Assembly: GCA_973895155.1 (NCBI GenBank)
Contig: OZ316896.1
Location: forward strand, 8,019,539 to 8,083,538
Direction: 5' to 3'
DNA: 64,000 nt
DNA from: Marsupella aquatica
Lineage: Eukaryota > Plantae > Marchantiophyta
Every line of letters starts with the position of its first letter. The first letter of the stretch is position 1. Below, one piece after another: positions 119 to 63,481 of this stretch. Position numbers and translations under genes: made by a program. The notes beneath the pieces are model-generated. The model did no database searches. It was not told the origin of the DNA and saw only the letters and a program-made list of their open reading frames with translations.

Positions 119-267
119 AGCTTATATTATTAAATAATAATAAATTAAAGGATTGTGAGTAAAGTACCTAAGCTTGAGATGTAGGCAATGTCAGCTTATA
201 TTATTAAATAATAATAAATTAAAGGATTGTGAGTAAAGTACCTAGGCTTGAGATGTAGGCAATGTCA
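119..267. repeat. 74-bp tandem duplication spanning an exon/intron donor of the element A transposase
   Basis: agcttatattattaaataataa...gtaggcaatgtc at 119-192 and 193-266; the minus strand reads AG|GTACTT at 242/241. Confidence 0.85.
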
Positions 268-2125
268 TCCTCAAATGCTCTAAGGACACTTGCCTCCAAG
301 ATATCTTTTCTCCCAAAAAGGAGGTCTTTAAAAAGACTTGTCGAGTCTGGCCCCTCCACAAGTGATTTGATCATTGGATTTGGGTTTTCCAACATCCTTA
401 GTATTGAATCAATTGACCCAATAGTGATGTTGACATCACCTGGCCACACTCCAACATGATATTGGGCTAGGGCCTTGGGACCATGACCATGAGTAAGGAT
501 ACCAGTGACAGTAATTGGGAACTTTTGGGCACCATCCACATGCTTAGGATTGAAGGGCATTCTTGGGAGAGCTGTCTTTGAATGATCCATTTTATCATGA
601 ATAAGGCATAACACTTTCTTTGGACGATGGATGGACTCATATCTCCAGGTATGATAGCACATTCTTTGCTGTGTGTGGTCTTGGTGATGTTCCTCCTCGT
701 CATGCCTTAGGCCCTCTACTCTTCCTTAGCTCCTGTAAGGTTTGCTTTCCGTTGAAGCAACTCACTACAAGTTGTACACTTTGAAAATTTGTTGCCCTTT
801 TTGTGACGCGAGAACTCCCTGAAATACATCTGATGTAGATGACTCAAGGTGGGTTGGGAAATTGGAGGAAGACCAGCCTCCTTGTTGACAACATTAACCC
901 TGTTTCTAATATTCTCCCAAGTAAGATTTGTTGGCAATTCCCTCAAAACCATTCTTGTATTATTTGCCATGGTTCTCAACTTGGCTGGATGATGATCAGC
1001 TGCCTCCTCAATAATCTCTTTCATTGACATGAACGCTTGAGATACTTTCTCGGACATACGCCTTTTTCCAGCATTACCATGGGTACCTATGTTCATTCCA
1101 GCCATCACAGTCTTCTTCAAGGCATAAAATTGAGTCTTTCCTCTTGAATGAATGATTCTCCATGCCTCCAAGCACAATACTTTGCCCTCCACTGCTAGAA
1201 TCCTTTCTCCAGTACCCAAGTGTATTGTATTTTTAATAGCCTTGATTTCCTCCTTGCGCTCCGCAAAAGATTTTGACCACCACTTTTGCCTAATTGCCAT
1301 AGCCAAGTTGCGGTCCAAATATTGGCAACAATGTTCACTACAACAGTCCTTAGTGTTTATCAACAACACATCTTGACGTGCCAAAGATGTGTCTCTAATA
1401 GATGTCTGGGAAGATGGACTCTTTCTTTTCCTACTTTTATGGACGTAGGACCGCTTGCCACTTGTTGGAGATGTGTTCCCTCCCACAACTTGCCTGATGT
1501 TGTGGAAAGACAACAAGTTGCCATCCTTGGCAATGAGTTGGTCCATCGACCAAGATTTTAAGCAATCTCTATGCTTCAGATGATCTATGGTAGCTCCCTC
1601 GATAAAATTGTTGATCAGAATTTCCACATGTGTATTCCCAAGGGTGACATCCCCAAGCTTCACTATAGGATCTAGAACATGTATAGTTGCCACTGCAAAA
1701 ATCAACTTGTTCTCATCCACCACCTTTACAGGCATGCCCATCCACAAGGCCTTTGGTAAAACTACTTCCACACCAGACCGACTCTCATTATGGTTGTTCC
1801 CATCAGAATTTTGATTGACTGGATCTTGATCATCACCAACAGTGCCAAACACATCCTCCGATTCCATGGGAGCTCGAAAAAGCTAATTCCTTTCCCATAC
1901 AAGGTAACCCCCAATCATGTCCTTCAAAAGTTTGCCATCTTCGCATAGAATGGTCTCGTCAAAAACTTCCTCTAATAGAAGAAGAACTCTGTCCGCCCCA
2001 AGAGGAACATTGTGACAAACCCTGGAAGGATCAAGACTTATCACGCGACCTTTTCCAACCTGTTTCTCACAAATGCCTATAATAACTTGTCCGCCTTCCC
2101 TGATCCAGACTATCGATGTCACCAT
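242..2125 (-). pseudogene. Sola-like (DUF7869-type) DDE transposase, N-terminal exon; one stop and one frameshift
   Basis: ORFs 1883-2125 and 716-1867 are in frame across one TAG; a frameshift near 720 joins 219-662. Motifs CCSEHCC, FSKCTTC and LCLIHDKMDHSKTALP parallel element C (CCDNFC, FSTCAPC, ICIDGMDQKK). Two N-terminal repeats resemble the En/Spm TnpA-associated beta domain (GRVISLDP..CHNVPLG). Confidence 0.75.
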
Positions 2126-2193
2126 AATAATTATGATCTAGCACATGAGAGAATATCACTATAAGCGTACAGTCCTGTCAAGTCCGTCAACTT

Positions 2194-59834: not shown

Positions 59835-62800
59835 CTAATCCAGTAACATGTCATTGAGATCATCCTCATTAGGCATTCTGGGAGGTTCTTCGGCTTCTTC
59901 TTCATTCTCGACCTTCTTCATGACTTCAACAGTGAAAGTCAAAGTCCCCAATGTTCCCAATTGGCCTCCAATCGGTGATTGAATCTCTAGACCTTCGCCG
60001 CCTTGCCCTTCAATCTGTGCTTCATCATATAAATTCCAGTTTGACTCTAGAGTCATAATCCGATGTCTCACAAAATCAATCTGTGCAGCATTTTTATCGA
60101 CCGCACAACCCTGGCAAGAATTGAGAAGAGCCGCAGCTAACATGGATCCGGTTCCGCAGCAAAGATCCATAACCCAGTCATTTTTCTCCGAGAAATGAGT
60201 AACGAACCAAGCACCCAAACCAACAGGCTTTTGGTACGGGTTCACAACATAGCCCAACGGATCAACAGACTTTTGGTTACACATGGAACCTTGATGATAT
60301 TGATGCGAGACTCATCCGGTTGGAAATTGTACATGTTCATGTTTTGGATGCCTTCCTTGCTGTAGAATCCCATCGACCAGTTTTCAAAACCCCACGCCAA
60401 TCAAGCACCGGCGGGACGCTCATGAATGTTAGTCTTCTCCCAAATTCCAGACTCAACCCCACAGTTGCACACAATCTTGAGCGCAGACATGACCATATTT
60501 TTTTGCTATAATGAATGGATCACAACAAACCTCCACTACTTAGCAGCTGTCATGTTCAAAAAACTTCTCACCATATCTACAACATCCTTTTCTATGAAGG
60601 ACACTTCATCAAACTCCGAACCAGGCGCATTAAAACCATACGGAATGTCGGCAAGAGTGTAAGGTTTTGCCTCCACAAAAGAATCCAAAATTCGAACATC
60701 CCCAACATGGAGATAGTAAGGGAAAGAATCTCCGTCAGCATTTTTCCATATTTGCTCCGCGGCTTCTCGTGCGTCCTTGCCTAGCGCCTAAAGCCGGTTG
60801 TACCGATCAATTGCAGCAAGCACAAAATTCTTGAACACATACGGGATGTCACCGGAGGGAACAATAACCTCCCCCGCCGAATTATATTGCACAGGTAGAA
60901 CAACTTTATTTTTCCGCTTTGACCCAATCTTCAGCTGTAACAAAGGTTGCACAAAATTCCAATCATAATGAAATCGCTTAACGAATACGAAAGCCGTTAA
61001 AAATCTCGGGAATGAAATGAGTTATGCAAAAATGTACTGATGGAATGGCAAGGCCGATAAAAATCTCGTGATGATTTTTGAATGGAACGAGGAATGCAAA
61101 AATCTACTAATGGAATGGCAAGGCCGATAAAAATCTTGGGGAGAGACGGATGCTTACCGCTTCGCTCAACTTCTCTGCCCATGTTCCCAGGACGGAAACA
61201 TCCGTCTCATTTGGAAACATTTCTCTGCACGTTGCCCAGTCGGGCTACCCAGATATCTGCAAGAATAATTTCTTCACCTTGGAAAGTTTTTTCAGCTTTT
61301 CCCCTTCCTTGTGCATTTGATCCAAGGTGATCACTTTCCCAATGACCCTATTCAAGAGCCGCTTAACATGCTCCTTAGTTGACTGTCCTTGAAGACCTCG
61401 AAAAGTATTTAAATTGAGGTCACCTGCAAGTTTATTCATTTTAATCTCTTTCAGCGTTAAAGGTTTAACCTTTCCCTTTGCATTTGTTGTTGCCATGATC
61501 TTTTTGGGTTGTCCCAAGACAGTCCCCTTCTCCCACATCTGGAAAACTTTCTTCTAAAGATCCCAAATTTCACCCATTCGAAAAGCAATCTGGAATGTTG
61601 GGTCATGTTTGGCCATGCTGTCACGAACACCGGGAGTGTATTGCAGCATACATTCCTGACAACAAGCTTCGCAAACATCCTTGTTTGATCCTACATCCAT
61701 TTCAACAAAGATATTGTGGCACGCACAAACTCTATCGATATGAGTCATGTTCTTCCTATACTCCTGGTCATAATTGTGCTGGAAGCCCAACTTCCGGACC
61801 TCCGACTTGGTAAGTCCTGCGTATACCCAAGCTTCCAGCTCACCATAAATCTGCTTCCCATACATTTTATACAACTCGGCCTTTGCCCGAGCACCATGAT
61901 TTCCTCCAATAATTCTATACTTCCATACTCTGGACTTTAGAATGTCCCAATCCTTGATTGTGGGACAATCCTCCGGATCCACACACAGTAGTGGGGTTTT
62001 TCCTTAGAAGAATCTTGATATTCTCCACATGCAATTAATTTGTCCACTAGTCTGATCAAAGTTCACTTCTCTCCAGCTTCATCAAAAATTAAATTGTCGA
62101 CATGCAAGAGGACAGTTGTCCTTTGAACCCTTTGCTGCATCAGCAGACTGAGCTCCGCTTTGATGGCGTCAGTCTCATACATCGAAAGAGCAGTCTCCTC
62201 CTCTTCATCAATCTAGAAAATGCCGTTTGAAATTAGATTATGAAAGAAACAACAAGATTTTTATCGGAATCCTCTTTCGTCAATAGAAAATCAAAGTTTG
62301 GTAGCACTTACCGATCGAACCTCGGCTTGTATATCTGAACGAGGCAAACGCTCATCAAGCAAAGGAGGATCCATATCGATCAGGGCTTCCACTCCTTCTA
62401 GGGCTGTGGATAAACTCCAACCTGTTCTCTTTCTCTTAACGCTAACTCCAGAACCAGATGGCCCCGATCCCTCAGATCCTCTACTCTCGCTTACATTTAT
62501 GTAAGGCGCTTCCAAAACGCCTAAACCTGCACTGGTTGCACGACCTCGACGAATGCCGCTGCCCCTTCTCCCGCCCTCAGAGGGACCAGCAAAATCTTCC
62601 ATGATGTTCCCTCTCCCTCTCCCTTTCCCCCTGCCACTTCCCTTCCCCGAACCACTTTTGGGCTCGTCCAAAGCCGTACCTCCAGCACTTTTTGCCGATG
62701 AAGCTCCACTCCCGTTAGAACCAGGCCTCTTAATAACTATTTTCCGGATGGGTCTGAATTCTTCACCTGTGAGCCTCTTGTACTCTGCGTTCACCCTTGG

Positions 62801-63217
62801 TAGCATGATGAGATCACAATCTTGGACAAACTGGCACACCCAAGCTGGGCCCATAAGATTCATTACTTTTGTTGACCTAACTTCCGCGACAAGCGCGTCT
62901 TCAAGGTAACTCTCAAGGGATTTCTCAAGAAAGTTCTCCATGGTGACAATGACAGAGGTGAATCCCTTGCCTCCACACATTGTCAAGAAACTCAGACCCT
63001 CTTTCAACACTTTTGCCTCTCCCTGGCTAATCAAGTACTCACAGATCGCCACACCAACAACGGGGCCAAACAAGAGAGTAACCTTTGCGGATTTTTGCAT
63101 CTGGACCCAAAGGATAGGAGACTCACAGTCTACCATATCCTTGGATTGTAACCTGGCGTCGCGGAAGTACCACGGTTTCTTGATGAACCCTAAAACCAAA
63201 AACCGGCATGCAAACAT
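59835..63217 (-). pseudogene. Multi-exon gene: ParB/Srx-like domain fused to a beta-class N6-adenine/N4-cytosine DNA methyltransferase
   Basis: YRIIGGNHGARA (61554-61982); LHVGDVRIL, motif IV ADIPYG (60649-60638), YQKPV, motif I VMDLCCGTGSMLAAA, AVDKN; introns 62213-62311 and 60935-61157; stops and frameshifts. Confidence 0.8.
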
Positions 63218-63481
63218 CGATACAATGAACTCAGAAAGTCCTCATTCACGTACAAGCATTAGGTCATTCCACGAGCGATACCAACTCCGATAAAATTATC
63301 GCAAACAAATATGAGCACGATATAAATTGACGGCCGAGATTACATTATCGTATGTGTCAACATCTGAAAATGAGAGCAACACCGATAAAATTATCGCAAA
63401 AGTGGTCCAAACAAAAAGTGAGCCTTCTTTAAATTGACGACCAACTGTACATGTGATAATGTGCCTAATCAATCATCCCAC

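Follow-up and report, generated by a model that had tools for sequence, protein, structure and literature searches.

ParB-box genes and family-specific palindromes in three decayed transposons of Marsupella aquatica

Genes of the three elements

We analyzed a stretch of 64,000 nucleotides (nt; 64 kb) from the liverwort Marsupella aquatica (GenBank assembly GCA_973895155.1, contig OZ316896.1, positions 8,019,539 to 8,083,538 of the forward strand), referred to as the window and numbered from its first letter. Pfam was run over 150 of the 153 stop-to-stop open reading frames (ORFs) of at least 90 amino acids (aa), and together with the ORF survey it depicted intron-bearing DNA rich in transposable elements. 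The window holds three decayed copies of cut-and-paste transposon families, each with a ParB-box gene and a palindrome specific to the family. By Pfam and ORF comparison, this ParB-like gene is the sole accessory gene type common to all three elements, and the boxes LRGQH, FDGNH and IGGNH were found where a preliminary description of this DNA had placed them. Named relatives of the ParB-like genes come from the liverworts Calypogeia fissa and Riccia sorocarpa, from Chara braunii and from Ginkgo biloba. The genes and palindromes of the three elements are as follows.

219-1882, minus strand: two transposase-like ORFs of element 1 (222-725 and 719-1882), weak Pfam match to DUF7869 on 222-725 (E 0.0012)
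2253-11528, no strand: 18 A palindromes (ACGCGACYRGTCGCGT) of element 1, pattern search
8329-10114, plus strand: three paralogous ORFs of about 185 aa in element 1, weak F-box-like Pfam hits
10193-13360, plus strand: ParB-box gene of element 1, LRGQH at 11149-11163, aligned with its relative P0004
11748-12050, 12118-12846 and 12941-13360, plus strand: later ORFs of the element 1 ParB-box gene, no function assigned
23938-27510, minus strand: 3' part of the transposase-like gene of element 2, SWIM-like CxCx(n)CxH string in 23938-24420
36694-37605, no strand: 5' end of the element 2 transposase gene and spacer, ATG near 37088 (minus strand)
41052-42600, plus strand: ParB-like gene of element 2, FDGNH at 41733-41747, fold of its relative P0071
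53399-55838, plus strand: transposase gene of element 3 with DUF7869 (Pfam E 3.3e-43 at 54891-55478)
59553-59709, no strand: pair of decayed C sites on the 3' side of the ParB-methyltransferase gene, pattern search
59838-63241, minus strand: gene for a ParB-like domain and an N6/N4 DNA methyltransferase, element 3, IGGNH at 61896-61910, Pfam N6_N4_Mtase E 3.2e-4 on 59838-60311
63287-63397, no strand: pair of C sites immediately before the ParB-methyltransferase gene, pattern search

The transposase labels of the preliminary description have a narrow basis. Two of the transposases had been called Sola-like; the whole basis for classifying them is the pair of DUF7869 matches in elements 1 and 3. 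ORF 222-725 of element 1 shares 34% identity with the DUF7869 ORF of element 3 across 86 aa, and we did not find DUF7869 named in the literature searched. The Mutator-like label of the third goes back to the CxCx(n)CxH string, found by eye, which resembles a SWIM zinc finger motif; the three transposase ORFs of element 2 gave no Pfam match at E up to 5, the MULE catalytic domain and SWIM included. The elements had also been described as giant, and much of that size consists of nested insertions. The two 433-aa ORFs at 25977-27275 and 53399-54697 were considered as relatives and ruled out as such by ORF comparison.

All three ParB-like genes are broken copies of abundant families. The gene of element 1 is interrupted by a frame change near 10724-10760, and its relative P0004 (418 aa, about 60% identical) aligns to it in two frames (10220-10762 and 10759-11406); the box reads LRGQH in the window copy and ILGGQH in P0004. 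The gene of element 2 has in-frame stops at 41535 and 42066 and reads DGNHQ, while in 33 aligned sequences DGNH is invariant and the R that follows it is kept in at least 90%. The gene of element 3 carries several stops and frame changes, and the stop at 61247-61245 is a sense codon in all the contigs over it. These contigs come from four public sequencing runs (three organisms), which we compared with elements 1 and 3. In runs X1, X3 and X4, element 1 was covered by 684, 436 and 1354 fragments and element 3 by 361, 311 and 474, at 85-99% identity. Elements 1 and 3 are high-copy families, the depth figures being sums over contigs and not copy numbers. The majority differences between element 1 and the contigs were mostly A>G and T>C, so the window copy has lost C and G.

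In element 3, the ParB-like domain and an N6/N4 DNA methyltransferase are fused in one protein. Its relatives can be aligned along a single strand, through 62209-61140 and 60859-59955, and the methyltransferase part contains the strings DIPYG (near 60650) and DLCCGTGS (near 60170). Eight relatives align to this part of the window gene, and N6_N4_Mtase scored above the Pfam cut-off in 5 of the 24 long relatives scanned. The transposase (53399-55838, plus) and ParB-methyltransferase (63241-59838, minus) genes lie on opposite strands. One predicted protein of Chara braunii (P0010, 1825 aa) comprises two tandem units of ParB-like domain and N6/N4 methyltransferase, which could be a genuine duplication or the product of gene prediction across two neighboring element copies.

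Palindrome families and their placement

Recurrent palindromes became visible only with one mismatch allowed, a count of perfect palindromes giving at most two copies of anything. A near-palindrome scan and pattern searches then revealed four recurrent families, A to D, each in one stretch; except for pairs in duplicated DNA, the scan found no further recurring palindrome in the window. For A, searched with up to three mismatches, all 18 matches fell within 2253-11528 (0.21 expected), and its 7-nt half-site ACGCGAC occurred 21 times, always within 2043-11522. C (CCGATAAWTTTATCGG) produced 19 strand-hits, corresponding to 11 sites, all at 54654-63397 (0.83 expected). All nine D sites (CTAGCGCCNGGCGCTAG) lie at 23548-25710, 37308-37605 and 41972 (0.08 expected), and the eight B sites (GGGATACNNNGTATCCC, GGGATAC-N3-GTATCCC) are all in 37934-40557 (1.82 expected). 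The preliminary description had given each element its own palindrome of 15-18 bp. This holds for A, C and D, which are private, 16-17 bp long and far above chance; the motif of the middle element is D and not GGGATAC-N3-GTATCCC. We rejected B as the own motif of element 2 when flanking inverted repeats were found around it and D was found in the element itself. The insertions that bear on this are listed here.

27512-36693, plus strand: nested long terminal repeat (LTR) retrotransposon with C5 DNA methyltransferase, reverse transcriptase, integrase and PHD finger
37771-40905 (3.1 kb), no strand: nested gene-less element bounded by terminal inverted repeats (TIRs) of 34 nt (37771-37804 and 40872-40905, 30 of 34 positions matching)
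56494-58807, plus strand: nested non-LTR retrotransposon (RVT_1, zf-RVT), its limits of about 55.8-59.5 kb being an unmapped estimate

The TIR element encloses all eight B sites but none of the D sites, so that B belongs to another, gene-less element, possibly the non-autonomous relative of some further family. The B palindromes sit in inverted repeats of about 40 nt (TTGAAT..AAATGGGATAC-N3-GTATCCCATTT..ATTCAA), with GGGATCC variants among them.

The A, C and D palindromes keep to the noncoding parts of their own elements, as the preliminary description had claimed: each is private to its element, and nested insertions and long ORFs are avoided. Although ORFs of at least 100 aa take up 44% (A), 77% (C) and 62% (D) of the spans of these palindromes, they overlap 4 of the 38 sites: one of 18 for A, two of 11 for C and one of 9 for D. 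None of the four motifs was found in the nested LTR retrotransposon, and pattern searches found no A, C or D site in the nested non-LTR element or in the gypsy element described below. Predicted GT-AG introns hold sites in the transposase genes as well as in the ParB-like genes, and sites are also placed within some 50-60 nt of start codons, on the upstream side. Four C palindromes are in the predicted intron 54627-54939 of the element 3 transposase gene, the sequence and reading phase of which fit GT-AG splicing, and three C-like sites are in the predicted intron 60935-61157 of the ParB-methyltransferase gene. The predicted introns 11431-11564 and 41885-42013 of the other two ParB-like genes hold A sites at 11478 and 11513 and a D palindrome at 41972-41988, respectively. 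Around the element 2 transposase gene, three D sites fall in the ORF gap 25451-25976, two lie behind the gene and three before it, the last at 37308, 37371 and 37589 in the spacer between the divergent transposase and ParB-like genes. In element 1, A sites at 2253 and 2546 precede the transposase-like gene by 370-660 nt, a cluster of five occupies 7934-8326, and an A palindrome stands directly upstream of two of the three F-box-like ORFs. Another is about 50 nt before the ATG of the ParB-box gene, which starts near 10193.

These positions are consistent with control of the element's own genes. One explanation of this kind is that a host transcription factor, or another protein of the element such as the product of the Cys-rich ORF at 3204-3749 or of the F-box-like ORFs, uses the palindromes as promoter or enhancer elements, with no connection to the ParB-like protein. 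It would account for the sites some 45-70 nt ahead of start codons (8927, 10127 and 63287) and for those between the divergent genes at 37308-37605. Against it, the ParB-like gene is the only accessory type that the three elements share, and the motifs differ completely among families of a single genome, as would be expected of readers encoded by the elements rather than of one host factor common to all. We consider the promoter explanation quite unlikely.

Many copies are also part of tandem units. Seven A-like sites, at 4015-5169, sit in a 256-bp repeat that covers 3988-5258, C sites recur with a unit length of about 80 bp over 54640-54900, and one of the independent loci described below has a unit of about 138 bp. 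The palindromes could then be functionless, hairpin-prone units that were duplicated in tandem and carried along as the families amplified. This seems to us highly improbable, as isolated copies occur outside tandem units in separate introns and spacers (8927, 10127, 41972, 23796 and 63287) and the same layout is found with unrelated motifs in diverged families.

The comparison with the public runs bears on the palindromes as well. At the palindrome-breaking positions 8065, 8315, 8323, 11480, 11516, 59695 and 59707, the palindromic letter was present in every run with contigs there, with the exception of 8315 in X4. Degenerate A sites of the window are perfect palindromes in most other copies, and the decayed C site at 59694 is a perfect CCGATAAATTTATCGG in other copies. 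The palindromes therefore belong to each family's own sequence.

Several further features of the window were recorded. Pfam matches to reverse transcriptase, RNase H and integrase at 32062-36047 and 43520-47901 correspond to two gypsy-type/LTR elements, and those to a non-LTR reverse transcriptase fall at 56494-58807. The first of these LTR elements splits element 2; it is flanked by TTGTC and TTGTG, and its LTRs of about 333 nt are 95.5% identical. In its coding region, reverse transcriptase, integrase and PHD finger are preceded by a C5 cytosine DNA methyltransferase domain (32062-32724, E 4.7e-12). Downstream from the element 1 ParB-box gene, 13661-14130 consists of 15-nt periodic repeats with Lys/Glu/Ala-rich coding and a weak histone-H1-like Pfam hit. 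Positions 1-60 of the window contain plant-type telomere-like repeats in both orientations (CCCTAAA and TTTAGGG) that form a 16-nt palindrome. A GC-rich 3-kb unit with coiled-coil-like ORFs is present in two direct copies, 91.6% identical (15120-18155 and 49281-52290), the second of which, with about 0.9 kb extra, splits a 14-bp tandem array (49031-49303 and 53210-53370).

Fold of the ParB-like proteins and independent loci

Profile searches retrieved 33 relatives for the element 2 family and 66 representatives for the element 3 family, and one relative, P0004, was found for element 1. We obtained the clearest structural match with an intact relative of the element 2 protein, P0071, in the AlphaFold model of which residues 110-281 mostly had a predicted local distance difference test score (pLDDT) above 90. 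Compared with solved structures by VIA, this model reached a Z score of 8.1 to Myxococcus ParB 7o0n (root mean square deviation 2.4 over 91 residues), 7.5-7.6 to Noc, Caulobacter ParB and Bacillus ParB, 7.1 to KorB and 6.0 to a plant sulfiredoxin (Srx). All 29 rows among the VIA matches listed were ParB, Noc, KorB, PadC, pNOB8 ParB, sulfiredoxin, SerK or SbnI, the last two of which share the ParB/Srx fold. Foldseek likewise ranked ParB, sulfiredoxin, Noc and KorB best, with a probability of up to 0.99 and a best E of only 0.046; the structures matched by P0071 include 8qa8/8qa9, 7bm8, 6sdk and 7ol9.

For element 3, an exon-only model that lacks the first strands gave Foldseek ranks 1 to 9 that were all ParB, Spo0J or KorB, at weak E values of 0.31-0.86, and hhalign placed this family on that of element 2 box on box over 101 columns (E 5e-4). 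The element 1 family also aligned box on box, by weak hhalign matches to the other two families (alignments A1, E 0.011, and A4, E 0.022), and in a language-model search DUF3723 clusters came first (0.95-0.96) and a ParB_N cluster at rank 30 (0.91). The ParB/Srx fold that the preliminary description proposed for all three proteins is supported by the predicted structure in the FDGNH family, suggested in the IGGNH family and weakly indicated in the LRGQH family.

The language-model search put both P0004 and P0071, relatives of window 10720-11340 and 41052-41885, beside fungal DUF3723 clusters (0.95-0.96), a lead that a Pfam search did not support. DUF3723 is a common accessory gene of Starship elements, and none of the literature searched linked it with ParB.

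The pairing of gene and private palindrome recurs in independent contigs, with other palindromes. Metagenome contigs were scanned with the element 2 profile, which yielded 75 loci, and the 50 loci of at least 3 kb were tested for palindromes. A near-palindrome family of at least three copies was present in 6 of these 50 and in none of 100 shuffles; the six represent three distinct elements, because loci L044, L046, L047 and L048 overlap. With at least two copies, the figures were 17 of 50 loci and 3 of 100 shuffles, and with the exact-arm version of the test 6 of 50 and 0 of 50. The test is insensitive, scoring the window's own D at two copies. In locus L006, GGTGCC-N6-GGCACC occurs 17 times (0.13 expected), and 15 of the copies form an array with a period of about 138 bp directly before the ParB-like exon. 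L024 has about eight sites of TTCCAAMATTTTGGAA between a relative of the transposase and the ParB-like gene, as in the window, and in L046 GAAGAAC-N4-GTTCTTC is found three times in the 700 nt that precede its ParB-like gene. Relatives of the element 2 ORF 25977-27275 are found upstream of the ParB-like gene and on the opposite strand in 8 of the 75 loci, at 27-38% identity. A divergent layout kept at such low transposase identity indicates that the pair of transposase and ParB-like gene is old. Searched by tblastn against the 75 loci, P0004, P0005 and P0006, which are relatives of the element 1 and element 3 proteins, gave no matches.

Possible roles and comparison with known systems

We put at about even the chance that the accessory protein recognizes the 16-17-bp palindromes of its own family, through a DNA-reading part beside the ParB-like domain, and then acts locally. 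The putative binding would take place at the palindromes before the element's genes and within its introns, by way of the domain adjoining the ParB-like one. Its target would be the DNA of the element that encodes it. The element 3 protein would direct its fused methyltransferase there, and the proteins of elements 1 and 2 would serve as a regulator or a clamp, like plasmid KorB. Each family would in this way control or protect its own copies only.

A number of results weigh against such recognition, beginning with the fold. The Pfam ParB domain (PF02195) was not matched by the three window ORFs or by P0004, P0071, P0072, P0005 and P0006 at E up to 10, nor by any of the 31 members of alignment A1 at E up to 1, two of which gave a weak match to DUF6551 (E 0.034). 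Profile searches of solved structures with alignments A1 and A2 found no ParB match either. The VIA comparison of the element 3 model gave a Z of at most 3.1, and for element 1 the case consists of sequence and language-model matches. The boxes read DGNHR, GGNHG or GGNHS, and GGQH, and not GERRxRA, which is the canonical CTP-binding box of clamp ParBs. In bacterial ParB, the palindrome is read by a helix-turn-helix domain that follows the N-terminal domain; the match of P0071 is to the N-terminal nucleotide-binding domain alone, and the model ends at the exon end, before any helix-turn-helix. The helical half of the element 3 model (P0003) resembled MarR-type winged helices at a Z of only about 3.5, and a wide VIA search with this model returned helical matches only (Z of at most 3.8) and no ParB. 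Among the independent loci, only 6 of 50 passed the test at three or more copies and 33 were negative in the palindrome test, several of them with 6 kb of upstream DNA, and the background of this test was made of shuffled sequences. Finally, the nested TIR element is rich in palindromes and has no ParB gene, and contigs over the palindrome cluster 8024-8271 of element 1 had a summed word depth 5 to 20 times that of the gene body in three runs. The last result means that the palindromes may also spread without the gene. Joints "going back" 68-265 nt at 8024-8271 point to tandem arrays of variable length.

CACTA, hAT and Mutator transposons carry repeated short motifs, subterminal or internal, that are bound by the transposase. 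The palindromes could likewise be transposase binding sites, with the ParB-like protein doing something else, as a nuclease, an NTPase or an anti-silencing factor that does not recognize sites. Both the gene-less array of the TIR element and the excess depth over 8024-8271 favor this explanation; they fit equally well the use of the sites by a protein acting in trans. Transposase sites would not readily be expected to spread over some 9-10 kb, into the introns of both genes and to positions before start codons, with no concentration at the ends (the element ends being unmapped), and the arrays of L006, L024 and L046 lie right next to the ParB-like gene. We regard binding by the transposase as unlikely, and self-recognition by the ParB-like protein as the preferred reading.

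A broader version of self-recognition is possible, if doubtful. A ParB-fold protein with its private palindrome might be a widespread, portable module of eukaryotic cut-and-paste transposons that extends into land plants, has been combined with at least three transposase types and occurs either bare or fused to a methyltransferase, with sites in promoters and introns by which each family regulates or chemically marks its own copies; DUF3723 could perhaps be a further branch. Should the proteins indeed recognize their own palindromes, transposon families would have taken over from bacterial plasmids and phages a private means of addressing their copies, which would add a new layer to the epigenetic conflict between transposon and host and provide a source of orthogonal protein-and-site pairs.

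Several known systems resemble parts of this arrangement. KorB of plasmid RK2, ParB and Noc are ParB-fold proteins with palindromic sites, present in many copies on a mobile element and, for several, in promoter regions. The likeness lies in a ParB-fold protein of a mobile element and one palindrome spread over that element; the window proteins differ in lacking the GERRxRA box, in being eukaryotic and encoded by genes with introns, and in that no ParA partner was seen. VANC proteins of the Arabidopsis VANDAL elements (Mutator) are encoded by the element and recognize noncoding motifs specific to their own family. To our knowledge, VANC is not ParB-like and its motifs are not palindromes of the kind found in the window.

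Element 3 can be compared with Dam-type methyltransferases of phage or prokaryote origin that are fused to ParB-HTH in chlorophytes and chytrids (Iyer, Zhang, Aravind 2016, PMC4738411), which share with it a eukaryotic ParB-type module fused to an adenine-type DNA methyltransferase. The methyltransferase clades differ, Dam/DpnM there and Pfam N6_N4_Mtase in element 3, and the passages on these proteins mention neither a transposon context nor palindromes, both of which element 3 has. Sola1-1_Ec32 of the brown alga Ectocarpus, a 21.5-kb element, is described as encoding a protein with a ParB-like and an N4C/N6A methyltransferase domain on the strand opposite to the transposase, and its authors suggest self-binding and self-modification (PMC12477816). 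By description, element 3 has the same layout, a two-domain protein opposite the transposase; the passages on Sola1-1_Ec32 mention no palindromes, while element 3 has the C palindromes.

A further precedent is PAG3 of the red-algal Plavaka (EnSpm-type) giant transposons, described as having an N-terminal ParB-like domain and a 2-oxoglutarate (2OG) oxygenase domain (Petroll et al., bioRxiv 10.1101/2025.02.11.637652). According to the passages on it in the same preprint, tandem inverted-repeat arrays adjoin PAG3, homologues occur in Mutator-type elements of Chondrus, and the protein is proposed to bind and modify its own transposon. The window shares with PAG3, as there described, a ParB-like accessory gene inside a DNA transposon and inverted-repeat arrays beside the gene (A, C and D in the window; L006, L024 and L046 among the contigs). 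It differs in the transposases, which are DUF7869-type or carry a SWIM-like string in the window and are EnSpm in the PAG3 elements, and in the palindromes, which are also dispersed in introns and before genes, whereas those of PAG3 form an adjacent array. The window elements lack a 2OG oxygenase domain by Pfam, no match having been obtained in the 150 ORFs scanned at E up to 0.01 or in the downstream ORFs at E up to 5. The hosts differ as well, a streptophyte here and red algae for PAG3.

The preliminary description had known of no account of such a module; passages of the two algal papers (10.1101/2025.02.11.637652 and PMC12477816) print what is in essence this hypothesis. Self-recognition was already proposed in 2025 for algal elements, and the streptophyte members are the addition made here. 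The window provides a first indication of the pattern in the plant lineage. In a single stretch, it brings together three diverged families of the protein and three motifs unrelated to one another, which makes it a specificity panel for the binding test that those algal papers call for.

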